Source: a virus (Duplodnaviria; Heunggongvirae; Uroviricota; Caudoviricetes). Taken from it: a DNA stretch of 64,000 bases. The position numbers and the translations under genes are program-made. Shown here in pieces: positions 2,509 to 63,731 of the stretch (position 1 is its first letter; each line of letters starts with the position of its first letter). Location of the stretch: positions 19,467-83,466 of the IMG/VR virus record IMGVR_UViG_3300010430_000005. One strand, written 5' to 3'. The notes beneath the pieces are model-generated. The model had not been told where the DNA came from. It saw only the letters and a list, made by a program, of their open reading frames with translations, and did not search any database.

Positions 2509-3438
2509 ATGGCTTCATCATTTAGTTCACTTAAAAAATCCCGCACCAATGCTTTTGATAAGCTCAACAAACAGCTTTCTAGCATGGCAAACAGCGGTTA
2601 TTCCAACCCAGACGAAGATAAATATTGGCAGCCTAAAGTAGACGCTTCGGGTAACGGTATGGCTATCATCAGATTCCTTCCGGCACCTAACGGTGAAGAT
2701 ATGCCCTTTATTCGTCTTTGGACACACGGTTTTCAGGGCCCTTCGGGCAAATGGTATATTGAAAACTGCCGTTCTACAATTAACGAAGATGACCCGGTCA
2801 ACGATCTCAACAACACTCTTTGGAATAGCGGTGTTGAGGCAGACAAAGAAATCGCACGTAAACAAAAACGTCGTTTGAGCTACATCTCAAATATCTATGT
2901 TGTGCGCGATCCTAGCAACCCAGATAACGAAGGTAAAGTATTCTTGTACAAGTACGGCAAGAAAATCTTCGATAAGCTGAACGATGCTATGAACCCAGAG
3001 TTTGAGGGCGAAGTGGCCGTTAATCCGTTCGATTTCTGGGAAGGCGCAAACTTCCGTCTAAAGATCCGTAAGGTAGAAGGTTATCGCAACTACGATAAAT
3101 CGGAGTTTGATTCTCCAGAGGCATTGCTAGATGACGATGATAAACTAGAGGAAATCTGGAAACAGCAACATTCCTTGCAGGAAATCATCGACCCTAAAAA
3201 CTTCAAGCCATACGATGAGCTAAAGAAAAAGCTGGACATGGTATTGGGTAAAAACACTTCTTCTTCCTCGGCTGCGACAGCAAATGACGAAGATATGGGT
3301 AGCAGCAGCGACTTTGATCTATCTAAACTAGGTTCCTCGGACCCCGAACCAGAAATCAATTCCTCCTCTTCTGAAGATAGTGGTTCTGGCGAAGTTGATG
3401 ACGATATCGCGTTTTTCCAATCTCTAGCAAATAGCTAA
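2509..3438 (+). CDS. 32: single-stranded DNA-binding protein (T4 gp32 family)
   Basis: The blocks WQPKVDASGNGMAIIRFLPAPNGEDMPFIRLWTHGF...GKWYIENCRST, FLYKYGKKIFDKL and WEGANFRLKIRKV are colinear with T4 gp32. Acidic C-terminal tail. Confidence 0.9.
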   Translation: MASSFSSLKKSRTNAFDKLNKQLSSMANSGYSNPDEDKYWQPKVDASGNGMAIIRFLPAPNGEDMPFIRLWTHGFQGPSGKWYIENCRSTINEDDPVNDLNNTLWNSGVEADKEIARKQKRRLSYISNIYVVRDPSNPDNEGKVFLYKYGKKIFDKLNDAMNPEFEGEVAVNPFDFWEGANFRLKIRKVEGYRNYDKSEFDSPEALLDDDDKLEEIWKQQHSLQEIIDPKNFKPYDELKKKLDMVLGKNTSSSSAATANDEDMGSSSDFDLSKLGSSDPEPEINSSSSEDSGSGEVDDDIAFFQSLANS

Positions 3439-3482: not shown

Positions 3483-3731
3483 ATGGCAATAAATGATTTT
3501 GGCTTCTCTTTTATTGACGATACTAGAGACGAACTTGAAAGAGTCACAAACGAAAAAGAAGTAACTATAGGCGATCTCCAGAATCGGCTTCAGTTAATGT
3601 ATGATGCTATAGATCCGCTACTAAATAATCTTGCATCCAATCCAGAAAAAACAACAATATATTGGCCCAATCGAGAAGAGGTTATTAAACAGTTTCGTTC
3701 TGAACTGGAAGCCTTGCTACGAATAGAATAG
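3483..3731 (+). CDS. hypothetical protein
   Basis: 82-aa ORF between gene 32 and uvsX. Confidence 0.35.
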   Translation: MAINDFGFSFIDDTRDELERVTNEKEVTIGDLQNRLQLMYDAIDPLLNNLASNPEKTTIYWPNREEVIKQFRSELEALLRIE

Positions 3732-3740
3732 GAGAATAAT

Positions 3741-5186
3741 ATGAGCCTTTTAGATAAAATGCTTAAGAGCGGCAGCACTAAGAATACTACACTATTGTCC
3801 AAGTCGGACTTTTTCGGAGGAGACGAGTCCAACATTGTTCCTATTGGCATTCCGATTCTTAACACGGCTTTCAGCGGAGAAATTGACGGCGGTTTGACAC
3901 CAGGACTTATTGTTGTCGCGGGAGCGAGTAAGACGTTCAAAACTATGATTTCTTTGCTATGTATGAAAGCATTCTTAGATAAATACGATGACGGTATCGC
4001 TCTGCTTTATGATTCAGAATTTGGCATTACACCTGAGTATATCGAAAGTTTCGGGATCGACACAGAACGAGTTGTCCATATACCCATCGAGAATATCGAA
4101 ATACTGAAATTTGACCTTGTAGGTAAGCTACAAGAAATCGATAAAAAAGATAATGTCTTTATTATGATAGATTCTGTAGGCAACTTGGCTTCTAAAAAGG
4201 AAGTCGAAGACGCCGAGAATGAAAAGTCTGTAGCAGACATGACTCGTGCTAAATCTCTCAAATCGTTGTTTAGGATCATCACTCCTCACCTAACAATGAA
4301 AAAGATTCCTTGCTTGGCTATCAACCACATATATCTCGAGCAGGGTCTTTATCCGAAAGCTATTGTCTCGGGTGGATGCTTAGATGGTTCTACGGAAATT
4401 ATTATGTCCGACGGTTCAACAAAGAAGATTCAAGACATAGACGCTGGCGAATCCGTACTTACTCTTGAAGGCGGGCGTGAAGTTACGCACACATGGGACC
4501 CCGACACATTAGAAGAAGGAACGCCAGAGTGTTACGAAATAAAGTTCGACGATGGTAGTAGTGTCATTTGCTCGGATTCGCACCGGTTTATGAATATGAA
4601 CGGTGAATGGGAAGAAGTGTCATTACTTAACGTCGGAGACGTTCTGGGGCAAGAAACAAAAAAAATCACTTCTATAAAAAAAATAGGTAAGCGGCCCGTA
4701 TACGATATTACAGTCAGTGACGTGGCCCATTACATCTTAAAAAACGGCTTAGTGTCTCACAACACAGGTGTGATGTATTCTGCAAACCAAGTGTTCATCA
4801 TTACTAAATCGCAAGAAAAAGATGGCACTGATCTAGCAGGTTACAAATTCACCATCAACATTGAAAAATCGAGATATGTACGAGAAAAAGCCAAACTTCC
4901 ATTTACTGTTTTGTACGAAACAGGTATCAGAAAATGGTCAGGAATGTTTGACTTAGCACTCGAATTCGGTTATGTTGTAAAAGCGAATCAAGGCTGGTAC
5001 AACAAGGTAGACTTCGAAACAGGCGAAGTGATTGAACCTAAGTGCCGAGCCAAAGACATAGACAACGATGACGAGTTCTTCGAAGCGCTAGTTAAAGATT
5101 CGGCTTTCAAAAAATTCATAGAGAAAAAATATAAGTTGGGTGCCCCGTTGTTAGATCAAGGGGAGCATCAGGAACCTGAGGAGTAA
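3741..5186 (+). CDS. uvsX: UvsX/RecA-family recombinase interrupted by an in-frame mini-intein
   Basis: RBS ggagaataatATG. RecA-type Walker A in GLIVVAGASKTFKT. Extein similarity to UvsX resumes after the insert (TGVMYSANQVFIITKS). Confidence 0.8.
   Translation: MSLLDKMLKSGSTKNTTLLSKSDFFGGDESNIVPIGIPILNTAFSGEIDGGLTPGLIVVAGASKTFKTMISLLCMKAFLDKYDDGIALLYDSEFGITPEYIESFGIDTERVVHIPIENIEILKFDLVGKLQEIDKKDNVFIMIDSVGNLASKKEVEDAENEKSVADMTRAKSLKSLFRIITPHLTMKKIPCLAINHIYLEQGLYPKAIVSGGCLDGSTEIIMSDGSTKKIQDIDAGESVLTLEGGREVTHTWDPDTLEEGTPECYEIKFDDGSSVICSDSHRFMNMNGEWEEVSLLNVGDVLGQETKKITSIKKIGKRPVYDITVSDVAHYILKNGLVSHNTGVMYSANQVFIITKSQEKDGTDLAGYKFTINIEKSRYVREKAKLPFTVLYETGIRKWSGMFDLALEFGYVVKANQGWYNKVDFETGEVIEPKCRAKDIDNDDEFFEALVKDSAFKKFIEKKYKLGAPLLDQGEHQEPEE
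4377..4763 (+). other. mini-intein (Hint domain) inside uvsX
   Basis: Insert starts at Cys (CLDGSTEIIMSDG, block A-like) and ends in ...LVSHN followed by Thr (+1 nucleophile). About 129 aa with no homing-endonuclease domain. Confidence 0.7.
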
Positions 5187-6777: not shown

Positions 6778-7184
6778 ACATAACTTTTGAAGGGGCGGTT
6801 CCGGATTTCATAACAGAAGAAATGCAAAAATTATCTGACTTTGTTGTTGAGTATTTTGGCCCTGGGTTAGACTGCGAAGTGGTAATGGTTTTTGACGATA
6901 ACATGGCAGAGCACGAGCACGGATTTATTGGGCAGACTAATGATGATAGCTACGAAGCGGAGATAAACTCTAACATGTCGTACGAGGAAACCATTCGAAG
7001 CATATTTCACGAAATGGTACATGCGCACCAGTTGTTCTCTGGTAAATTGGTCGTGGAGAAAAGCAATAAATACTGGGAAGGACAATGTTTTTCGCAATGC
7101 GAATATAGCGATTCTCCTTGGGAAATAGAAGCCCACCAAAAAGAAAATGACATGTATTCATTATGGGAGTTCAAGTATGGATGA
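6774..7184 (+). CDS. hypothetical protein with HExxH (zinc-metallopeptidase-like) motif
   Basis: ATGA overlap start. The motif FHEMVHAHQ contains HEMVH. Confidence 0.4.
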   Translation: MNITFEGAVPDFITEEMQKLSDFVVEYFGPGLDCEVVMVFDDNMAEHEHGFIGQTNDDSYEAEINSNMSYEETIRSIFHEMVHAHQLFSGKLVVEKSNKYWEGQCFSQCEYSDSPWEIEAHQKENDMYSLWEFKYG

Positions 7185-8805
7185 GATAGACACAAAACAG
7201 CTAATAATAGAAGCTTATCTAGATATAGTAGAAACGAATATGGCCGTGCCGGTCCAAAGCGATTTTGTCGAATACGGCATAAAACGAGGCGCCATCCGTT
7301 ACCATTTTGGTAACATGGAAAACCTGCATAGATATATAAGCAATAACCATAAAAATGCTATTAGCGAATATTTCTCTACGGTAGACAATGTCTTCAAAGG
7401 CGGCGAGTACGTCGAGCAAAATATGAACAAGAAAAAATATGTCGTGACAACTGCTGTTGCGGATGCTAAGGCACACAAAGGTTTTCTTGATTCTATAAAA
7501 CATTACTGCAAAACCCACGATGCTAGCATAATAATAATGCCTTGCGAAAGCATCACTAACAGTTTTGAGCGCAGAACTGCGACTTTTGATAAAGAATTCA
7601 ACAACGAAGATTATATATTCGTCACAGACGACACTCAGCTAAACGAAAATATTTCGTTATGTAGCATTCAAGTATCGGCCAAGCAAATAAAGCCCATAAC
7701 GGGCCTTAACCGAATAGGTCACCGTGAGGGTTCTTATGTTTTTGCGAGTCCGAAGCAATTCTTAGAGTACGTACCCACAGGACATTCTAGGGGTAAAAAC
7801 TATGCTGTCATGACTCCGGGCGCATGCACCAAACCAAGTTATTATTCGGATACGTTTGTTTCTAAACGACTTTCCTACATCGCGGACCATGACCACACAT
7901 ACGGTGCACTAATAATCGAGATAGAGGACGACAAGACTTTCCACTTCAGACAAGTGCAGGCAGATGAAGAAGGTAAATTTATTGATTTAGGTGTGATGTA
8001 CTCGCCCGAAGGAACAACTAAAGATGTAGAAACTAATGTTATATTGGGCGATGTGCATGCGGCGCAGGTAGACAAAGATGTAGTAGATTCTTTCATAGGA
8101 GCAATGAAAGACATAAACATAAAAAGGTGCTTCCTACACGACATATTTGACGGACACTCTATAAACCACCACATTACAACAATAGGCGAAAGAGCTATGA
8201 GAGCTCTGTATAAAGAGCAATCACTAGAAGAAGAGCTCAGAGTTACTTGGTCCGTAATCAATCACATAAGAGAAGGTTTGGGTGCTGACCACACATATGT
8301 AGTAAAATCTAACCACGATGAGTTTCTTGATCGTTACTTGAAAGAAGGTAGGTATATAGATGACCCAGAAAACCATTACATTAGCTTAAAGATAGCACCT
8401 TCTCTTTTTGGGGAGCTTTGCGGAGATCCTTTGGTGGCCGGTCTAATTTTATCGAACGGTATAGAAACTTTCGAGAACATAACATTCCTTCGTCGCGATT
8501 CGGACGTTACTGTGGGCGGTTCTCAATGCGCAGCACACGGAGACCTAGGCTTGAACGGTGCCAAATCCTCCCTCAACGGTTTAGAAAAAATATACGGTAA
8601 TTGTGTAGTCGGGCATGTCCACAGCGCTGCTATACAACGAGGTGTTTTTCGAGTAGGCACGTTCACTAAGATGGATATGGGATACAACAGAGGGCCTTCG
8701 TCGTGGACACATACTGCATGTCTCTTGTACGAAAATGGCCAACGACAACTCATCAATTGCGTAAATGGTAAGTTTTACAAAGATCAAGAACAAAATACGC
8801 AATAA
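7177..8805 (+). CDS. calcineurin-like metallophosphoesterase domain protein
   Basis: Ordered motifs LGDVHA (GDxH), FDGHS, KSNHDEF (GNHD/E) and VVGHVHS (GHxH). Has a large N-terminal extension. Confidence 0.55.
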   Translation: MDEIDTKQLIIEAYLDIVETNMAVPVQSDFVEYGIKRGAIRYHFGNMENLHRYISNNHKNAISEYFSTVDNVFKGGEYVEQNMNKKKYVVTTAVADAKAHKGFLDSIKHYCKTHDASIIIMPCESITNSFERRTATFDKEFNNEDYIFVTDDTQLNENISLCSIQVSAKQIKPITGLNRIGHREGSYVFASPKQFLEYVPTGHSRGKNYAVMTPGACTKPSYYSDTFVSKRLSYIADHDHTYGALIIEIEDDKTFHFRQVQADEEGKFIDLGVMYSPEGTTKDVETNVILGDVHAAQVDKDVVDSFIGAMKDINIKRCFLHDIFDGHSINHHITTIGERAMRALYKEQSLEEELRVTWSVINHIREGLGADHTYVVKSNHDEFLDRYLKEGRYIDDPENHYISLKIAPSLFGELCGDPLVAGLILSNGIETFENITFLRRDSDVTVGGSQCAAHGDLGLNGAKSSLNGLEKIYGNCVVGHVHSAAIQRGVFRVGTFTKMDMGYNRGPSSWTHTACLLYENGQRQLINCVNGKFYKDQEQNTQ

Positions 8806-8992: not shown

Positions 8993-10720
8993 GTGACTAA
9001 AAAAGAAAAAGACCCGGAGATCAAAGACGTATCTAAGTATGTTGATTTTGATCCAGAGATTACAGAGAACGAACAAGTATCTGAAGCCCTAACACCCGCA
9101 GAAAGAAGGAAACGCGGCCAAGTTATGCGTCGCTATAAGTCCAAAATAGCTGCCGGTAAGCGAAGAGCATCCAAGAAGAGAGCTACGCCGGAGAAACTAA
9201 AGAAAAGAGCTATTAAAAAAGCTAGAGGGTTGATCAAGGACAAGCTGAACAAGTCTAAGTCATATTCCGAAATGTCTGCTGCCGAAAAGGTGGCGCTAGA
9301 TAAGAGAATGGAAAAGATTCCGCAGGCTAGAATAGACAGGTTGGCCAAAAAGCTATTGCCTCAAGTCAAAAAAGACGAGTTAGAACGTATGTCTAAGAAG
9401 AAATCGACGAATGAAGAATTCGAATTATTTCTTGAAAATTGCTGTTTCCCAAAAAGATATCATAAATTACTCACTAAAGACAACTGCGTAAACATAGATC
9501 GTAGATTCAAGATGTACAGGCAGAGGTTTTTAGAAGACGAAAATTTGCACGAAGTTCTAAAGAAAGTAGATGGTAGATGGGCTCTAGTAAGCCGTAAAGA
9601 TCCGTCTAAAGTTCTCCAATATTACGATGGTGAAGGCAAACCTTCAGATGAGTGGGTAAATAAAGTCGAAAAAAGAGTTCAGATGTTTAAACACATGGGT
9701 GAAGAGCATGGCGCTGGCGAATGGGGTACTGACGAGCTAACAGACAAATACAAAAAAGATACTCCAGGTGAAAGCTTGAATGAAAATGCTCTAGGTGCTC
9801 TTAGGTGGGCTACAAAGGCACATTCTGGCCAGAAAAGAAGAAGTGGGGAGCCTTACATTAACCACCCAAAAGAAGTTGCTAGGTTCGTCAAGCAGTTTAA
9901 GAAGTCTCATAACCTGGATGCTCTAATATCGGCAGCTTACTTGCACGACACAATCGAAGACACTGACACGACCCACCAAGACTTAGTTCGTCAATTCGGT
10001 GGCCTTATAGCCGATATGGTTAAAGAACTTACTAGCGACAAAAAAGCTATCGAAGCCATGGGCAAGGGAGAATACATCGCTCAGAAAATGACCAAAATGA
10101 GCAGTTGGGCCCTAGTCGTAAAGCTAGCAGACAGGCTAGCAAATGTCCAAGACATAGATTCGCAATCGCCAGAGTTTCAGAAGAAGTATGCCAACCAAAC
10201 CAAGGTGGCGTTAGACAGGCTGAGAAAAGACCGCGTTTTGACAAAGGCCCACGGTGACCTTATTGATGCTATAGAGAAAAAGATAAAAGAGTATGTCACC
10301 GAGGGTAACCTAATGGGTGTAAACGAGTCTTTCGAGGCTTTGTTAGAGCAAGATTCGTGTGATATAATCACAATGGGGCAAATGAAGGCTTTTGAAAAAT
10401 TTGTGGATAGGATATTCGATAAGTACGATATAGATTTCCAATTCACAAAACACTTCGGAGACCGCATGAGTGACGATAGAAATAAACCATGCATAAAGAT
10501 GAAAGAATTAGCCGACTTTGTTACGAAGATATATAAAAGACAAGGTAAATCCCTAAAAGCAGAAGTAGGCGCCGAAGCAGTAATAAAAGATATGCAATCA
10601 GATTTGAATATTCCTTTGGTTGTGAAATATGACCAAAAGAATGACGAATTCGACATTGTTATGAAGACTATAATGCGCAAAAAGAATTTCAAAACGCCAA
10701 ACAAAGTGATAGAATACTGA
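8993..10720 (+). CDS. RelA/SpoT-type HD-domain protein (candidate (p)ppGpp / alarmone hydrolase) with Lys/Arg-rich N-terminus
   Basis: GTG start with GAAGGAG RBS. HSGQKRRSGEPYINHP...AAYLHDTIEDT matches the RelA/SpoT hydrolase HD motif (R-x-SGEPYI-x-HP ... LHDxxEDT). Preceded by TATAAATA at 8960. Confidence 0.6.
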   Translation: MTKKEKDPEIKDVSKYVDFDPEITENEQVSEALTPAERRKRGQVMRRYKSKIAAGKRRASKKRATPEKLKKRAIKKARGLIKDKLNKSKSYSEMSAAEKVALDKRMEKIPQARIDRLAKKLLPQVKKDELERMSKKKSTNEEFELFLENCCFPKRYHKLLTKDNCVNIDRRFKMYRQRFLEDENLHEVLKKVDGRWALVSRKDPSKVLQYYDGEGKPSDEWVNKVEKRVQMFKHMGEEHGAGEWGTDELTDKYKKDTPGESLNENALGALRWATKAHSGQKRRSGEPYINHPKEVARFVKQFKKSHNLDALISAAYLHDTIEDTDTTHQDLVRQFGGLIADMVKELTSDKKAIEAMGKGEYIAQKMTKMSSWALVVKLADRLANVQDIDSQSPEFQKKYANQTKVALDRLRKDRVLTKAHGDLIDAIEKKIKEYVTEGNLMGVNESFEALLEQDSCDIITMGQMKAFEKFVDRIFDKYDIDFQFTKHFGDRMSDDRNKPCIKMKELADFVTKIYKRQGKSLKAEVGAEAVIKDMQSDLNIPLVVKYDQKNDEFDIVMKTIMRKKNFKTPNKVIEY

Positions 10721-19455: not shown

Positions 19456-19503
19456 CGCCGTAGTGTGTCAATGTTAAAACCGTGTTACAAAAGGAGACGT
19501 AAC

Positions 19504-26854: not shown

Positions 26855-29095
26855 ATGAAACACTTAGATGAATCTTTGGATGAAATATATCCAATACAAC
26901 GACAAGAATCCAAAATATCTCATATATTTGACCATTGGTCTTTTGATGTTGAGAATGGGCAAGAACACGCCGTTAGATTCGTTAAGGGCCAAAATGGACC
27001 AAAAACTTCTAGAATTGTCTTTGGGGTTAAAAGAGGCAAAAAGATTGTTTCGAAAATCGAAAGTGTGCCAAACATTAGGAAGTATTTAGCTACTGTTATG
27101 CGTGCGGTAGAGACAGCTTTAGAAAATCCGACAAAAAAGGTTAAGGGCAGGATAGATGGTTTTGAGGTCAACGTGCCGCAAAAAGCATTTGATATTCTTG
27201 GTGATAGGATGATACGCATCTTGAGTAAGAGGCTCAGGGCAAGATTTAATGTGGCGGATAAATACACCGAGATGAAAGAGGATGGTTTTTCTTGCATTTT
27301 TGTTTGGAAAAAATCCAAACAATTTTCGGCAGTATTTCAAGAGTTAGATAAATCGGACATTGATGTTATGACCGAATTAGGTGACGTTGCGGGCATCGCG
27401 TCTAAAAAACACACGGAACATATGACCGATACATCTTCGGATAGGAGTCCTCAAGATGCTATCTCTTCAGTATCTTCGACTGCTTCAGCAGATTCGGAAA
27501 TCGATTTCGAAACAAACACTAAACAAAAAAGCGAAACAGATGTTGTTATAGATAAGAAGTCTGTAGTTTATAGTATGGGCGGGAAAGATATACGTAAAAA
27601 ACTATCTCAACAGGAAATAGAAAACAAAGTCAAGCGTCTGGCGATTTTGTCTGGCATTACCTCTTTCTATCATAGCAAAGAAATTTTTACGGATGTGCCG
27701 GTGTACGGGCCCGACGACATATCGTCTCTTATAGCCTCGGGTGGCGAAATATATATGGATTTCCCTAAACTTATATATTCTTTGATGTATAAAATAAAAG
27801 GTGTCTACACTGATGATATAATGTGGGGAAGCGACTATGCGTATTTAAGTGATGCTATAAAAAAAGCTACAGGTAATTATATAGATGTTAAGAAAGATGT
27901 GCAAGACATAATCGAAAAGAAGTTGCCTTCAGATTATGTTGTGGAAATGGCTTTGAATGTAGACAATATAAACAAAACGTTTATTGACAGGTATGGTGTA
28001 TCTGCTACAGATATAGTTAATGCTATGAAAGAAATGGATCCTAAGGGGTATAAGCATAAAAATCTAGAATTGAATAGTTCATCTTTTGTTAGTGGCATAG
28101 AAGACACGAAACAGGCTATTTTAGACGCCCTAGCTTCATCTGATACGCTGGAGACATCTGAGATGTACAAATTTGAAGAATCGATTGACGGTAAGCGAAT
28201 GATTAGAGGCAAGAATTATACCTTCGAAGACGTTCCTGCTAATCATTATTTGCAATCTTTAATACGACAAGCAAAAGAATTACCGCCTGAAGAATACCTA
28301 GAGATACAAAAGGTATTGCCCGAACATCTAAAAGATTATGTTATTTCTGATGATCTCGAATATTTTGAGACAATGATGGTTTCCGGCTGGACTATTTCTG
28401 GCGGTAATGTTGTGCAGACATTGGCGCATAGATATGCTAGTGAGGTAGGAGTTAATGCAGAATTGGGCGAATTTTGGAACTCGTCGAGTGAGGATTTTTC
28501 AAAAGAAAACGTAAGCAAAGCATATGATATTATGGCCGATAAGATCGCTGGCAATTTCGAAAGTATCTACGGAAAAACACAATCTTTCTATAAGAATAAA
28601 ATGAATAAAAAGTACGAGACTGCCAAAATCAAGTTATATAGAGGAATCGGCCAGAAAGACGTAGGTACTTATACTCCTGGTTCTTTAGAGTCTTGGACAT
28701 CTGTAGTATCTACGGCTAAAAAATTCGCTAAAATGATGTCCGATGCTGATAATGAAGGTACAATACTTTATGCTGAAGTGCCTATACAGCACATATTTGG
28801 CTCTTACGAATCGTTTTATGAAACTTGGCCCAACGAACAAGATCTGAAAGGCAAAAAAGAGTTTATAGTTATGGGCGGCACTTTTGCTACGACTCCTTTA
28901 TACTTATATGATCCTAGCACAAAAGAGAAGGTGTCTACATTGAACTTTAAAGAATGGATTGAATTGAAAGAGTCTAAGGAAACAAAATCAATTAAAGTGG
29001 TAACACCTTCCGATGATGGTTTTGATCCTAATGATCCTAAAGCTGCTTTTGGTAACGATCCGAAAGAAGAAAAAATCGACAAGAGAGAAGAATAG
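26855..29095 (+). CDS. large (746 aa) protein with possible C-terminal ADP-ribosyltransferase (R-S-E, Alt-like) domain
   Basis: RBS acaggagacaccATG. The C-terminal region has LYRG (R), about 20 aa later ESWTSVVST (S-T-S), and about 45 aa later YETWPNEQDLKGKKEF (candidate Q/ExE ARTT loop). Late promoter upstream, as for T4 alt. Confidence 0.35.
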   Translation: MKHLDESLDEIYPIQRQESKISHIFDHWSFDVENGQEHAVRFVKGQNGPKTSRIVFGVKRGKKIVSKIESVPNIRKYLATVMRAVETALENPTKKVKGRIDGFEVNVPQKAFDILGDRMIRILSKRLRARFNVADKYTEMKEDGFSCIFVWKKSKQFSAVFQELDKSDIDVMTELGDVAGIASKKHTEHMTDTSSDRSPQDAISSVSSTASADSEIDFETNTKQKSETDVVIDKKSVVYSMGGKDIRKKLSQQEIENKVKRLAILSGITSFYHSKEIFTDVPVYGPDDISSLIASGGEIYMDFPKLIYSLMYKIKGVYTDDIMWGSDYAYLSDAIKKATGNYIDVKKDVQDIIEKKLPSDYVVEMALNVDNINKTFIDRYGVSATDIVNAMKEMDPKGYKHKNLELNSSSFVSGIEDTKQAILDALASSDTLETSEMYKFEESIDGKRMIRGKNYTFEDVPANHYLQSLIRQAKELPPEEYLEIQKVLPEHLKDYVISDDLEYFETMMVSGWTISGGNVVQTLAHRYASEVGVNAELGEFWNSSSEDFSKENVSKAYDIMADKIAGNFESIYGKTQSFYKNKMNKKYETAKIKLYRGIGQKDVGTYTPGSLESWTSVVSTAKKFAKMMSDADNEGTILYAEVPIQHIFGSYESFYETWPNEQDLKGKKEFIVMGGTFATTPLYLYDPSTKEKVSTLNFKEWIELKESKETKSIKVVTPSDDGFDPNDPKAAFGNDPKEEKIDKREE

Positions 29096-39261: not shown

Positions 39262-40686
39262 ATGAACACTTTTTCTAACGCAGTTGCTAATATCAAATCA
39301 AAAGAAATCTCACGCACCGAAAACGGTATGAAAGCTTTTGCTACTTCCGATTCTAAAGTTCTTGACCTATTTGGTAAGATCGGTTCTGGTCGCGGTCGTG
39401 ATATGTCTCGCGAATTTATGGCAGCACTTGGTGAAGATCAAGAACTTGCGATTCGTGTTCTCCTATGGGCACGTGATGTTCGTGGTGGTGCGGGTGAACG
39501 CGAAACTTTCCGTTCGCTACTAAAGGCGCTAGAAAACGGCAATCCGACACTTGCTGGTAAAATCATGCACCTAATCCCGGTTCTGGGTCGTTGGGATGAT
39601 CTGTTCGTGTATGAGGATGCTATCAACCGTAAAGCAGCACTTCGCATGTATGCAGATGCTCTTACGGACGGAAATGGTCTAGCCGCAAAATGGGCACCGC
39701 GTGAAAAGTCAACCAAGAAAGAACGTGCAGCAATGCTACGCAAATTCATGGGTCTTTCACCTAAGGAATATCGTAAACTCCTAGTCTCGAATACGAATGT
39801 TGTGGAGACTCAAATGTGCGCGAAGGACTGGGGAGGTATCGACTTTTCGAAAGTTCCTTCTCTAGCGTCTGCACGTTATCAAAAGGCATTTGGTCGTAAT
39901 GCGAGCGAGCAATATGCAGCATACATTCGTGAACTCCAAAAGCCTCAGGCAGAGCGCAATCCGAAAGTTAAAATTAATGCTGGTGCAGTATACCCATATG
40001 ATATTGTGAAGTCTCTATCAAAAGGTAATGCTGCTGTTGCGGATGCACAATTCGAAGCACTCCCAAACTATGTAGGTGATTCTAAAATCCTACCAATGGT
40101 TGATGTTTCGGGTTCTATGTATACTCCACTTGCTGGAAATACCAATGCACTTGAAGTTGCTATCTCACTAGGTCTGTATCTTTCTGACCGCACCAGTTCT
40201 GATTTTAAGGACATGTTCCTTACTTTCTCTGGTGAGTCAAAGATCGAAACCCTAAAAGGTAGTCTGTCACAGAAGTATAACCAACTTCGTCGTGCGGAAT
40301 GGGGAATGAACACTAACCTACACTCTGCGTTTGAGGAAATTCTTCGAGTTGCAAAGGACGGCAATGTCTCGCAAGAGAACATGCCAGACACTGTTCTTAT
40401 CCTTAGTGATATGCAGTTTGATCGTTGCGTTCGTCACGATGACAATGCTCTTGGCATGATTAAACGCAAATATGCAGAAGCGGGATACACTATGCCTTCT
40501 GTTGTATTCTGGAACCTAACTGCACGTGCTGATAACACACCAGTTAAAACTAACGACAAAGGCGTTGCCCTTGTTTCGGGTTTTAGTCCAGCGATCATGG
40601 CAACGGTTCTTGGTGCGGATCCTACGGAATTTACACCATATGCAATGATGCTAAACACTATCATGAGCGACCGTTACAATTTTTAA
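39262..40686 (+). CDS. rsr: Ro60-like protein (TROVE domain + C-terminal vWA/MIDAS domain)
   Basis: RBS aaaggagaatataagATG. N-terminal TROVE-like region (LFGKIGSGRGRD...IRVLLWARDVRGGAGER...LIPVLGRWDDL). vWA MIDAS motif MVDVSGSM with a downstream Ser/Thr/Asp series. Same architecture as bacterial Rsr. Confidence 0.65.
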   Translation: MNTFSNAVANIKSKEISRTENGMKAFATSDSKVLDLFGKIGSGRGRDMSREFMAALGEDQELAIRVLLWARDVRGGAGERETFRSLLKALENGNPTLAGKIMHLIPVLGRWDDLFVYEDAINRKAALRMYADALTDGNGLAAKWAPREKSTKKERAAMLRKFMGLSPKEYRKLLVSNTNVVETQMCAKDWGGIDFSKVPSLASARYQKAFGRNASEQYAAYIRELQKPQAERNPKVKINAGAVYPYDIVKSLSKGNAAVADAQFEALPNYVGDSKILPMVDVSGSMYTPLAGNTNALEVAISLGLYLSDRTSSDFKDMFLTFSGESKIETLKGSLSQKYNQLRRAEWGMNTNLHSAFEEILRVAKDGNVSQENMPDTVLILSDMQFDRCVRHDDNALGMIKRKYAEAGYTMPSVVFWNLTARADNTPVKTNDKGVALVSGFSPAIMATVLGADPTEFTPYAMMLNTIMSDRYNF

Positions 40687-59924: not shown

Positions 59925-61592
59925 ATGACAAGCAATGCAGCATCACTAAAGCGCAAAGAACAACTGGATGAAATCCTTAATGTTCGTGGTCGTGCGGCAC
60001 CAACCAAACAGCAAAAAGAAGAAGTCGAAGCAAAGGATTCTCGGTTTGCAAATATCGAATCAAACCCATTCTTTCAGGCGGTTTTTGATGAAGCAGCTTC
60101 GCCAGAAGAAAAACAAGCCGCAGTCACTAAACTGCTAACTTTTGTGGGCACCCGCGAAGAAAATCGTGAACGTGTCAAAGCATTTGACACATTTAAAGAA
60201 TACCTACAAGCAGAGCGCGAAGTTATGGCAACGCAGATTATTAAAATGTCTGACACCAAAAACTTCGCAACACTGAAACAGGTCTTTGAAGAAATCAACA
60301 CTGCACTTCTTGATTTTGAAAAAGATATGGAACCTCTTACTGATATCATTGATGCACTTCATGAACTTCGTGCCGAAAACCAAACTCTAGATGCTTTCCG
60401 CGAAATCAAAGATGATGAGGCGCGTCAAGAAAAAATTCAAAAGCGTGAAAAGGAACTGAATGAGCAAATCTCTATGGTTCAGAACACTATCAATGAACTA
60501 AAAGCGCAAAACAAAATCAAACAAGAAGAGAAATCATTCTTCGGCCTTGGTTCTACAAAGCAATCTGCCTTGGAAGATATTGCACGCAACAACGTGACAA
60601 TTGAAAATAACCTTGATCAGATTCGTTCTCTTCAACAACAAATTGAAGAAACAAACAAATCAGATGCGCCAGAATCCAAAATCAAGAATGTAGAGGCAAA
60701 GCAAAAACTGAAAGAAATGCTTGATCTTGCAAGTGATGAGCACCAACAGCGTTCGCAAAATCTTGTCAACTCTGCGGTAAATTTCGTCGAGACTTCGAAA
60801 AACAAGATTCAAGACATTCGCGGCCATCTCGGTAATATGGCGGACCAAACCAAAAATCTTGAAGACGCAAATGGTCAGATGAGTTTTATCTATGCCATTC
60901 TAGGCGAAGGTGTGAAGGGCGCAGAAGAAGAAAACAAGAAAATTCGCGAAGAAATTCTGAAAACCCCGGCCACCGAAAATATGGTCGAAAAATTGACTCG
61001 CGAAGGCAAGCAACGTGATCTAGATGAACACATTCAAATGTTGGAGGTATCCTCTGTTGATACGCAAGCAACTGTTGCGGACTTGACAAGCGCATCTATT
61101 CGTATTAAGAATATGATTGATGCTAACCAACAACAGTCGCAAATGGCACGTGATATGCATTCGCGAGGTGTTGCTGGTGTCGCAGATCGTTTGTCAACAG
61201 TCATCCAAGCAGTGGGAGCAGCAGCAATCGCAGAATCTAACGCAATGACTGCGGAAACTTTGAATGCGATGTCAGATAACACTGATATGATTGCGCAAAA
61301 AGAATCTATGCGTCTGGCATTGGGTCTTGATGAACGTAATAGTGAACTAAACCGCGCAATCGAAAGTCTCGCACAATACGGCGAAGTGAACAAAGTTGCA
61401 ACAGATTTTACTCGTCGAGGCATCTCAGAAATGAAAGAAAACCTTGCGGTGCTTGAAAACACTGCCATGGAAGTTGCCGAAACTGTTCGCGAAAGCAAAT
61501 CCGCATATGCAGATATTGTTATGGGCAAAGACGGTTCTTCTGACAAGCAACAAACCAAAAAAGCAACAACCAAAAGCCCCTTTAAACTGTAA
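59925..61592 (+). CDS. large coiled-coil protein
   Basis: 555 aa, rich in Glu/Lys/Gln/Ala heptads. No enzymatic motifs. Confidence 0.5.
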   Translation: MTSNAASLKRKEQLDEILNVRGRAAPTKQQKEEVEAKDSRFANIESNPFFQAVFDEAASPEEKQAAVTKLLTFVGTREENRERVKAFDTFKEYLQAEREVMATQIIKMSDTKNFATLKQVFEEINTALLDFEKDMEPLTDIIDALHELRAENQTLDAFREIKDDEARQEKIQKREKELNEQISMVQNTINELKAQNKIKQEEKSFFGLGSTKQSALEDIARNNVTIENNLDQIRSLQQQIEETNKSDAPESKIKNVEAKQKLKEMLDLASDEHQQRSQNLVNSAVNFVETSKNKIQDIRGHLGNMADQTKNLEDANGQMSFIYAILGEGVKGAEEENKKIREEILKTPATENMVEKLTREGKQRDLDEHIQMLEVSSVDTQATVADLTSASIRIKNMIDANQQQSQMARDMHSRGVAGVADRLSTVIQAVGAAAIAESNAMTAETLNAMSDNTDMIAQKESMRLALGLDERNSELNRAIESLAQYGEVNKVATDFTRRGISEMKENLAVLENTAMEVAETVRESKSAYADIVMGKDGSSDKQQTKKATTKSPFKL

Positions 61593-61604: not shown

Positions 61605-63731
61605 ATGAAATACCTTATTACAGGTCACGAAATGCTAGAAACTGCGCCCGACTTTAAACTGGTCGGGCGCAACAAGGACATGACACGACTAACGTCTGTG
61701 CTACTTCGCAACAAAGCGGCATCTGTTATCCTTGTCGGCCCTGGTGGTGTTGGTGTAACATCACTGATTATGGGTCTACAGTCCCTTAAAAACCAATCTG
61801 ATGTCCCCTTTGATATTGTCTCGAAGCGCATCTTTTGGTTGAAAACAGATGAACTCTTTTCGTCTGGTGATAATGAGCAGATTAATAAAGGGTTTGGGAA
61901 TGTGTCAAACATCCTGAAACGAACGCCTGATTCAATTCTCGTTATCGAAGATACTCGCGACTTCATTGAAGCATGTCGTAATCATGGTTCAATGCATTTT
62001 ATCAATTCTATCAATTCTATGGTAAAATCTGGTCATACACAAGTCATTCTTGAAACTCGTGACCCTGATATCGAAATGGTTTTGAATGCACACTCTGATA
62101 TGCGTCAATGCTACACTATTGTGGATATCAATGAACCGATTGGAGATGATCTTAAACTGATTGTCAACGAAACAACATCTTCGCTTTCGAAACACCATGA
62201 TATCATGGTGTCGGAGGGTGTGATTGAGACTGCCATTGAATTGACCAATAAGTATCGCACTCGTGATTCGAGTCTTAGTCGTGCCCAGCCAGAACGTAGC
62301 ACAAACTTGATTGACCGCGCTTTGTCTTCATATCGTCTAGAAGCACATAAACGCCACCCAGACGCTATCATGTTGCTTTCCGAAGGTGTTGACGAAAATG
62401 ATCCTCGCATTCGAGAACTCGACGCCGAATTCGAAAAGATGCAAGAGCGTATCAAATATCTGTTTAACATGCAACGCGAAGGCGAAACCGCCATCATCGA
62501 ACTTGAAGAACAAATCACTACAATCAAAGAACAAGAAAAAGAAAGCCCGAAAGAGGTCGTTGAAGAAAACATGAACAATCGCCGTATTCAAATGTTTTCT
62601 AATGTTGCGAGTGTTGGTGGGATCGAAAGCGCAGAAATTCGTGCTTTGCGTGATAAAATTCGTCAATTCGAAGAAGTTATCAAAACAAACAAAGCAGAAT
62701 TTGACACACTGACTTCTAGTATCAATGAAAAACTTTTGTTGACAAAGGACCATGTTCTTGCTGAATTTAGTCGCCTTTCTGGTATCCCGGCAAGTAAACT
62801 AAATGAGAACGAAAAAGAGAAACTTCGTAATCTTGAAGCAGTTTTGAATTCTCGCGTATTTGGTCAAGAAAATGTCATTAAAAAGATTTCAGATGCTATT
62901 AAAGTATCTCGGATTGGTCAACGTAATGGTGGGAAACCACAAGCATCTTTCCTTATCATGGGTCCGAGTGGCACGGGTAAGACAGAAGTTTGTAAAGCAC
63001 TGGCACATGCATTGAAAGATGATGAAGCGGCACTAACACGTTTTGATATGTCAGAATACATGGAAAAGCATAGTGTTGCAAAACTCATTGGTGCCCCTGC
63101 TGGTTATGAGGGTAGTGAACGTGGTGGTATTCTAACCAATGCTATGCGTCAAAATCCGCACCGCATCATTCTTTTTGATGAAATTGAAAAAGCAGACCCT
63201 GCTGTGTTTGACTTGTTCTTGCAAATTCTTTCAGATGGTCGCCTTACAGACAACCATGGTCGGACTGTTAATTTTTCGGAATCAATGGTCATCATGACTA
63301 CCAATATTGGGCAATCGTTTTTCCTTGACGAAACCCTATCGGACGAAGAATCCGAACGCCTTGCAAACATTGAATTGGACGAAATTTACCGACCAGAATT
63401 TTTGAACCGTTTTGCTGGTCGTCAAAATATTGTGTGTTTTAATCGTTTGGGTATTGACTCTATCGTCAAAATCGTTAAAAGAGAACTATCTGCATTGAAA
63501 AGTGCATATGCCAATAATGGAGTTGATATTCGTATCAGCGAACAAGACATTGTTAGTTTCTGCGAAGATCACTATGAAGCAAAGCATGGTGCCCGTGGTC
63601 TACAAGGTTATATTGTTGCCAATGTCGAACCATTGATCGTTAACATGATTCTTTCGTCTGACGTTGATGGTAAAGTTCTTGATCTTGAATACAACAAAGA
63701 AACCAAGAGTTTTGATACTGTAGTCACATAA
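61605..63731 (+). CDS. ClpB/ClpA-like AAA+ ATPase (intact second NBD, degenerate first)
   Basis: RBS taaggaaactataatATG. The second NBD has FLIMGPSGTGKTE (Walker A), ILFDEIEKA (Walker B), a sensor region and the ClpB-type KLIGAPAGYEGSE. The N-terminal module VILVGPGGVGVTSL lacks the Walker A lysine. Confidence 0.6.
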   Translation: MKYLITGHEMLETAPDFKLVGRNKDMTRLTSVLLRNKAASVILVGPGGVGVTSLIMGLQSLKNQSDVPFDIVSKRIFWLKTDELFSSGDNEQINKGFGNVSNILKRTPDSILVIEDTRDFIEACRNHGSMHFINSINSMVKSGHTQVILETRDPDIEMVLNAHSDMRQCYTIVDINEPIGDDLKLIVNETTSSLSKHHDIMVSEGVIETAIELTNKYRTRDSSLSRAQPERSTNLIDRALSSYRLEAHKRHPDAIMLLSEGVDENDPRIRELDAEFEKMQERIKYLFNMQREGETAIIELEEQITTIKEQEKESPKEVVEENMNNRRIQMFSNVASVGGIESAEIRALRDKIRQFEEVIKTNKAEFDTLTSSINEKLLLTKDHVLAEFSRLSGIPASKLNENEKEKLRNLEAVLNSRVFGQENVIKKISDAIKVSRIGQRNGGKPQASFLIMGPSGTGKTEVCKALAHALKDDEAALTRFDMSEYMEKHSVAKLIGAPAGYEGSERGGILTNAMRQNPHRIILFDEIEKADPAVFDLFLQILSDGRLTDNHGRTVNFSESMVIMTTNIGQSFFLDETLSDEESERLANIELDEIYRPEFLNRFAGRQNIVCFNRLGIDSIVKIVKRELSALKSAYANNGVDIRISEQDIVSFCEDHYEAKHGARGLQGYIVANVEPLIVNMILSSDVDGKVLDLEYNKETKSFDTVVT

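Follow-up and report, generated by a model that had tools for sequence, protein, structure and literature searches.

What is a 129-codon segment with no counterpart in T4 doing in the middle of a phage recombinase gene? The question is raised by the uvsX gene in a 64,000-nucleotide stretch of the IMG/VR virus record IMGVR_UViG_3300010430_000005 (positions 19,467 to 83,466; this whole stretch is called the window, and coordinates count from its first letter). The answer that we favour, with a probability of about 0.88, is that the segment is a selfish mini-intein, predicted from its sequence to splice in cis, in the uvsX gene of an uncultured T4-like, cyanomyovirus-like phage. The gene is made up as follows.

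3741..5186, plus strand: uvsX precursor open reading frame (ORF), stop codon included, 481 aa; matches T4 UvsX (3io5), Pfam T4_UVSX_C and RecA, and phrog_97 (UvsX-like recombinase)
3741..4376, plus strand: N-extein, aa 1-212, with the Walker A motif, loop L1 and most of loop L2, ending ...YPKAIVSGG; aligned to T4 UvsX chain 3-186
4377..4763, plus strand: mini-intein of class-1 type, 129 aa, 14.2 kDa, without endonuclease domain; Pfam and TIGRFAM profiles above cut-off, AlphaFold2 model, Foldseek matches
4764..5183, plus strand: C-extein, aa 342-481, starting TGVMYSANQ... with Thr342 (nt 4764-4766) as +1 nucleophile; aligned to T4 UvsX chain 186-321

In a phmmer search against all PDB sequences, T4 UvsX (3io5) was matched with E = 7e-93 in two blocks, residues 29-212 of the query pairing with chain positions 3-186 and residues 341-475 with positions 186-321. 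T4 UvsX is unbroken at the junction (...VMGGG-TGPMYSAD...), and the window protein has 129 additional residues between ...AIVSGG and TGVMYSAN..., an insertion that costs no extein residues in this alignment. The insert (CLDG…VSHN, then Thr) measures 387 nt, or 129 codons, in frame. It opens with TGC (Cys213, nt 4377-4379), closes with CAC-AAC (His340-Asn341, nt 4758-4763) and is followed by the ACA of Thr342; the ORF is uninterrupted. An earlier note, made from the letters of the DNA, had seen UvsX similarity broken after the G of SGG by some 129 residues, starting with Cys, ending with HN and followed by Thr. These limits proved exact to the base, all three junction features are read in the sequence, and the masses that it gave for precursor and product (53 and 39 kDa) agree with the calculated 53.57 and 39.36 kDa, the intein accounting for 14.23 kDa. 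The intein allele is real and no assembly artefact, because the same sequence is present in two further independent assemblies from different projects, ENA ERZ27250943 (99.99% identity over 8,092 nt) and IMG/VR 3300005590 (99.97% over 3,443 nt).

Three intein-specific profiles scored above their curated cut-offs on the insert: Pfam Intein_splicing (PF14890; 42.2 bits, cut-off 35.8), TIGR01445 for the intein N-terminal region (32.5 bits, cut-off 24.5) and TIGR01443 for the C-terminal region (intein_Cterm; 27.0 bits, cut-off 15.6). The scores of Hom_end_hint, PT-HINT, Vint and Hint were below the Pfam cut-offs. None of the nuclease families of Pfam and NCBIfam matched the insert, and no LAGLIDADG, HNH or other module lies between its blocks B and F; its B-F linker is the shortest in an alignment of the contiguous and split inteins of the family. 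By sequence, the closest solved intein in the PDB was the 128-residue gp41-1 intein (6qaz; phmmer, E = 1.8e-9), which aligned end to end. An AlphaFold2 model built from 22 sequences is a single all-beta domain with a mean pLDDT (predicted local distance difference test) of 96.7. Its top Foldseek match in the PDB was again 6qaz, with template modelling (TM) scores of 0.84/0.85, a root mean square deviation of 2.0 Å and 30% identity, followed by the NpuDnaB, MchDnaB-1, NpuDnaE, Ssp DnaB, Msm DnaB, Mtu RecA and Pho RadA inteins; the top 50 matches were all inteins, bacterial intein-like (BIL) domains or Hedgehog HINT domains. The insert is thus an intein-type HINT domain without an endonuclease module, which makes it a mini-intein, and it has all the sequence and structure properties of a class-1 mini-intein that were checked. 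The lack of an endonuclease domain had been read correctly from the ORF.

Conservation was followed in an alignment of 24 sequences: the window intein, 20 contiguous metagenomic homologs and three split homologs from cultured phages. It placed the splicing blocks on the plus strand as follows.

4377..4415, plus strand: block A (CLDGSTEIIMSDG), with Cys1 (nt 4377-4379) as N-terminal nucleophile; C1 invariant in 24/24
4494..4532, plus strand: family-specific motif WDPDTLEEGTPEC, intein residues 40-52; W40, P42, T44, L45, P50 and C52 invariant in 24/24
4563..4592, plus strand: block B (VICSDSHRFM), S66-x-x-H69 being the TxxH equivalent; S66 and H69 invariant in 24/24
4635..4664, plus strand: variable loop (GDVLGQETKK), the break point in split homologs, from the contiguous versus split alignment and the HY03, TG1, VmeM-32 and IMG/VR loci
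4692..4748, plus strand: block F (RPVYDITVSDVAHYILKNG), with Asp110 in 'VYD'; V108, D110, Y119, N123 and G124 invariant, Y109 in 23/24
4749..4763, plus strand: block G (LVSHN), with penultimate His128 and terminal Asn129, both invariant in 24/24; TIGR01443

The catalytic set C1, S66, H69, D110, H128 and N129 is therefore invariant in every one of the 24 inteins. At +1, each of the 21 intein-bearing homologs has either Thr or Ser; the intein-less relatives have Thr in that place. All 24 members also share the pattern W-x-P-x-T-L-x-x-G-x-P-x-C, which may have a structural role or may bring Cys52 into a disulfide with Cys1. We infer splicing activity from the invariance of the residues needed for the class-1 pathway. 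By established intein chemistry, an N-to-S acyl shift would take place at Gly212-Cys213 of the 53.6-kDa precursor; the hydroxyl of Thr342 would then attack the thioester, giving a branched ester by transesterification; Asn341 would cyclise, aided by His340, and set the 14.2-kDa intein free; and an O-to-N shift would leave a peptide bond between Gly212 and Thr. The predicted product is a 39.4-kDa UvsX reading ...AIVSGG-TGVMYSAN..., with the same junction as in intein-less relatives. The unspliced precursor is expected to be inactive because the intein directly follows the conserved Gly-Gly that closes DNA-binding loop L2, and selection for efficient splicing would be expected to follow.

Relatives with and without the insert were compared. 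A search of 5.8 billion clustered proteins returned an identical protein on an ENA contig. Among the 120 best matches listed, the majority were UvsX proteins of about 355 aa, and about 21 were longer metagenomic UvsX proteins of 480-497 aa. An alignment of these sequences (A1) places an insert of 129-140 aa at one and the same position, GG|C...HN|(T/S), in each of the 21 long proteins; six of the short proteins, whose exteins are 71-76% identical to those of the window protein, run without a gap through VSGG-TG(I/V)(M/Y)YSAN. The intein-bearing proteins, at 68% extein identity or less, are more distant from the window protein than these six. The insert could have been native UvsX sequence shared by relatives; it is missing from T4 UvsX and from the six closest relatives, where the junction is perfect. 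Profiles, fold, catalytic residues and uninterrupted relatives together bear out the intein reading of the earlier note.

The same intein is present in cultured phages, in pieces. We searched 50,697 phage records by tblastn and translated the ORFs of the split loci. No full-length match to the window intein inside a UvsX gene was found among these records; the full-length matches that did appear, in Salicola phage SCTP-2 and the Lak phages, were distant (31-33%). A split uvsX was found in Escherichia phage HY03 (a Tequatrovirus), Shigella phage SP21535, Yersinia phage vB_YenM_TG1, Proteus phages Pm5461 and PM2, Vibrio phage vB_VmeM-32, Shewanella phage Thanatos-1, Pseudomonas phage PspYZU05 and several Salmonella, Enterobacter and Klebsiella phages. 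The uvsX annotation of each consists of two ORFs around a homing-endonuclease gene, of the GIY-YIG type in TG1 and of other types elsewhere. The upstream ORF reads ...GG|C(V)(V/I)xGT..., continues for about 97 intein residues and stops; the downstream ORF starts MK(I/V)KS(V/I)K..VG.K.V(Y/F)D...HN|TG..., its C-half being 35 aa long. The break falls in the variable loop between blocks B and F, and the insertion site is that of the window intein. From these sequences, each ORF pair is read as the two halves, N and C, of this intein at this insertion point. They share with the window intein the GG|C...HN|TG point, the blocks and the motif W(D/N)PxTLxxGxPxC, and differ in being two ORFs with an endonuclease gene between them, which would require trans-splicing, whereas the window intein lies in one polypeptide and has no such gene. 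A naturally split or fractured state of the window gene was considered as well, and is ruled out by its single uninterrupted ORF, 3741..5186.

The HY03 locus (NC_031047.1, 99514-101999) is a clear case, with uvsX fractured by the split intein and a 240-aa endonuclease gene; its C-extein looks nearly identical to that of T4, judging by the T4 sequence and the 3io5 alignment. UvsX must function in these cultured phages, which counts for the intein reading. Present annotation hides the arrangement: RefSeq calls the pieces 'DNA repair protein', 'homing endonuclease' and 'recombinase', one of the split versions, which GenBank has contained for years, carries a 'HintC' note, and among the PHROG profiles phrog_8337 ends inside the N-part of the intein and phrog_18112 starts in its C-part. 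Directly upstream of the split uvsX of vB_VmeM-32 (locus 1-1417), the DNA polymerase is likewise annotated in two neighbouring ORFs ('DNA polymerase' and 'putative DNA polymerase'), and may be another broken replication gene.

The GG|T intein has a sporadic distribution among UvsX proteins, of the kind that a mobile element would show. Its identity to the window intein remains flat at 42-53% across exteins that range from 48 to 68%, and over 276 pairs intein and extein similarity were uncorrelated (Spearman rho 0.02), which suggests horizontal movement between uvsX alleles. Among those compared, the enterobacterial split inteins were the most similar to the window intein (52-53%), yet their exteins were the most distant (48-51%). 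The element, which has no endonuclease of its own, would be selfish; it probably persists since only a precise deletion restores the gene, and its spread from phage to phage is probably by recombination in co-infected cells, perhaps with the aid of free-standing homing endonucleases such as those that interrupt the split versions.

Several points weigh against the view of a mobile, splicing intein. The case for splicing is built on residue conservation. Block B has Ser where Thr is usual, although all family members share this Ser. Part of the flatness of the intein identities could be due to saturation of a small, constrained domain and not to transfer. At 0.434, the intein is close in GC content to the exteins (0.403; window, 0.399), so that there is no sign of a recent arrival. 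Finally, the mobility route is speculative because no relative of the endonucleases of the split versions was found in the 64-kb window (phmmer, best E = 0.046; other endonuclease families were not searched systematically).

Three other explanations were weighed against the selfish mini-intein. The one that survives best, though we consider it improbable, is a conditional, regulatory intein, whose splicing would be gated by single-stranded DNA, redox state or temperature and would control UvsX after translation. The insertion at the DNA-binding L2/Gly-Gly element of a recombinase is in favour of it, as is Cys52, invariant in 24/24 alongside the catalytic Cys1, so that a disulfide trap is conceivable; and a precedent exists in the extein-controlled splicing of the Pyrococcus horikoshii RadA intein (PMC4513877). 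However, the sequence gives no proof of gating, the intein is missing from many closely related phages, and its occurrence in split form, fractured by a homing-endonuclease gene (HEG), fits a selfish element better than a conserved regulator.

A decayed relic that no longer splices, leaving uvsX inactive or working with a 14-kDa insertion, appears very unlikely. Loss of the endonuclease domain can be a late stage of the homing cycle, and the Ser of block B would agree with decay; but the catalytic residues are intact, and their invariance in 24 homologs that are otherwise only 42-55% identical points to purifying selection on splicing. The uninterrupted ORF and the compact HINT fold, confidently predicted by the model, speak the same way. 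T4 UvsX is needed for recombination-dependent replication, so that strong selection against a dead insertion at the DNA-binding loop is to be expected.

Last, a native lineage-specific UvsX domain, or a BIL domain that is retained or that cleaves without ligation, would draw on the weak sub-threshold Pfam matches to PT-HINT, Vint and Hint, and we give it hardly any weight, as the closest relatives have a perfect junction without the insert, intein-specific models score above cut-off and other Hint families below, and the insert sits with a His-Asn end and a nucleophile inside an invariant, functionally critical motif (after G211-G212, with Thr at +1), BIL domains typically lacking a +1 nucleophile, occupying variable regions of non-conserved proteins and cleaving rather than ligating.

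The intein belongs to a large family. Among 1.84 billion representative proteins scanned exhaustively with HMMER, 2,079 matched at E <= 1e-3. UvsX-like exteins are present in 42 of the best 150 of these, and about 46 have the GG|C junction, roughly half of them contiguous and half N-halves; the N-halves end 1-7 residues past the break point. A scan of IMG/VR gave 199 loci with the GG|T site occupied, whose state was counted in the best 80: 12 were contiguous, three had a longer in-frame linker, and 63 were split, with 28-2,040 nt between the halves. In about 45 of the 63 split loci the gap is at least 700 nt, enough for an endonuclease gene. The short-gap loci (among L014-L087, for example L015, L021, L026, L033, L065, L082 and L085) consist of a stop codon, a short spacer and an ATG, and some contain a recurring ...RWHNDNCK peptide, resembling what a decayed homing endonuclease might leave of its C-terminus. 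The range of gaps, from 28 nt to about 2 kb, may thus represent a decay series of the endonuclease gene inside the split intein. Outside phages, 185,579 bacterial and archaeal genomes (one per species) gave only two marginal partial matches, and a tblastn search of plasmids one weak Streptomyces match; because nothing relevant came from these scans, the family appears to be confined to phages.

In a neighbour-joining tree of the N-halves, split and contiguous forms were interleaved; the tree has no support values and was used for this interleaving only, not for the direction of change. One pair stands out among the proteins: P0156, a contiguous UvsX intein of 477 aa, and P0244, 137 aa long and classed as a split N-half, have an essentially identical N-part. 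They are either a very recent contiguous/split pair or the result of a gene truncated at a contig end. P0244 also starts with the C-half of an intein at the upstream site described below.

These observations can be combined into a broader proposal, which we put forward tentatively, at somewhat less than even odds. The window intein would represent the intact, cis-splicing state of a family of natural split inteins that break up uvsX in cultured T4-like coliphages and related phages; its site, L2/Gly-Gly, would be a previously uncatalogued one in the RecA superfamily; and public data would hold every stage of gene breaking at GG|T, from the contiguous mini-intein through the HEG-fractured gene and decaying endonuclease remnants to the endonuclease-free split intein, the interleaving implying repeated fracture, re-fusion or both. 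If this is true, the family would offer a natural system in which to test the way split inteins arise, and protein engineering would gain a source of small gp41-1-like cis/trans intein pairs.

The insertion site is directly after Gly211-Gly212, a pair found without exception in the 27 aligned UvsX proteins. In alignments with RecA structures this Gly-Gly (G211-G212 of E. coli RecA) closes DNA-binding loop L2 and opens the next helix. In RecA-DNA structures these Gly-Gly residues contact the DNA backbone. The UvsX site would be equivalent to G212|N213 of E. coli RecA. In a M. tuberculosis RecA sequence whose numbering reproduces Cys252 as the first intein residue, point b presumably reads VMFG|SPETTTGG, eight residues upstream of the GG|K that is equivalent to the UvsX site. 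RecA residue 216, where point d starts in A. baumannii, is presumably Phe in the sequence used, which is no possible +1 nucleophile. Five RecA/RadA insertion points, a to e, are on record: a at M. tuberculosis 252, b at 206, c in the P-loop, d at A. baumannii 216-370, and e, an insertion in the ATP-binding site of a RadA protein (Topilina et al. 2015, PMC4513877). On the mapping just given, the UvsX GG|T site does not appear to be point a, b or c; it may or may not coincide with d. The earlier note had placed the insertion near the RecA core, at a known intein hotspot; this holds for the RecA family generally and not for the exact site, since the documented hotspot is the P-loop (PMC4513877) and the insertion here follows the L2 Gly-Gly.

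Two further intein sites were seen in UvsX proteins. The second (…NH(V/I)Yxxx|C…HN|S(M/K)xxK…) precedes the Gly-Gly by 9-10 residues and is present in P0016, P0123, P0124, P0126, P0128, P0142, P0143 and P0155; its intein is contiguous (P0016, P0123) or split (proteins starting with a C-half) and often stands alongside a GG|T intein, so that some uvsX genes have two inteins. The third (…GxSKxFK|C…HHN|T…) falls in the P-loop of the Walker A motif, the classic 'c' hotspot of RecA and RadA, and was found in P0133, P0139, P0164, P0170, P0176, P0231 and P0239, and also in P0141 and P0265. P-loop and GG|T inteins occur together in several proteins, P-loop and upstream-site inteins in others (P0170, P0176 and P0239), and the RecA-like P0141 appears to hold three intein segments. 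UvsX is thereby an intein hotspot with at least three points: the P-loop, 9-10 residues before the Gly-Gly, and Gly-Gly|Thr.

Much of this has precedents. Inteins, mini-inteins, RecA/RadA inteins and split inteins with endonuclease genes are already established, and the window element is a conventional mini-intein. It resembles gp41-1 (6qaz, 6riz) in its very small HINT domain (~128 aa in gp41-1) and in its context of T4-like cyanophage replication genes. It differs in that gp41-1 is naturally split and hosted by the gp41 helicase, whereas the window intein is contiguous and in UvsX; the +1 residue is also different, Ser in gp41-1 versus Thr here. The RecA/RadA inteins (M. tuberculosis RecA-a, M. 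leprae RecA-b, P-loop c, A. baumannii d) are likewise found in a critical conserved motif of a RecA-superfamily host, and the Mtu RecA splicing domain is a structural match with a TM score of about 0.8; unlike the window intein, most of them have LAGLIDADG endonuclease domains, and identity is only about 20%. The Pho RadA intein is, like that of the window, a mini-intein with Thr at +1. Fractured genes with split inteins around endonuclease genes were described for gp41, NrdA, NrdJ and IMPDH in cyanophage-like metagenomic loci, UvsX being only a neighbouring, upstream gene in that work (Dassa et al. 2009, PMC2677866). The UvsX intein family shows the contiguous, HEG-fractured and HEG-less split stages of the gene-breaking model proposed there (PMC2677866). 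No published description of a UvsX intein was found in searches with UvsX plus intein, split intein or fractured gene, and with phage names, coverage of subscription journals being incomplete. The novelty lies in the context, namely that the window has a natural split-intein family in its unbroken form and that UvsX is a multi-site hotspot.

For annotation, the window has one intein-containing uvsX gene whose product is a 352-aa recombinase, and the two-ORF 'DNA repair protein / recombinase' pairs of cultured T4-like phages are to be read as split-intein halves of one UvsX. As contiguous and split forms are found together at GG|T, the model in which endonuclease invasion gives rise to split inteins (Dassa et al. 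2009) can be tested with natural pairs. The 129-aa gp41-1-related intein and its natural split relatives are also a candidate protein-ligation tool.

The surroundings of the gene are those of a T4-like phage, in the order gp59 - gp32 - small ORF - uvsX - gp41-type helicase.

2509..3438, plus strand: gp32 single-strand DNA-binding protein gene, upstream of uvsX; PF08804 on the identical contig L004
3483..3731, plus strand: 82-aa ORF between gp32 and uvsX; position kept on L004, with a 105-aa ORF in the same place in L005
5192..6616, plus strand: gp41-like DnaB-family replicative helicase gene, intein-free; PF03796 DnaB_C on L004

The searches done gave the 82-aa ORF (3483..3731) no endonuclease identity, and a hidden Markov model of the family, run against the six-frame translations, detected no second intein of the same family in the window. 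Megablast of the uvsX gene found no close match in the 50,697 phage records, and the phage is therefore taken to have no close cultured relative. On a 174-kb contig, a homolog has genes for heme oxygenase and bilin reductase in its vicinity, a typical feature of T4-like cyanophages. Three large ORFs of the window (7147..8805, 26855..29095 and 59925..61592) had no Pfam match. Further on, the window holds intein-free class I ribonucleotide reductase genes and other phage genes, among them the following.

8993..10720, plus strand: 575-aa HD-domain protein
39262..40686, plus strand: DUF7788/DUF2828 vWA-like protein
61605..63731, plus strand: 708-aa ClpB-like AAA+ ATPase (AAA_2, ClpB_D2-small)

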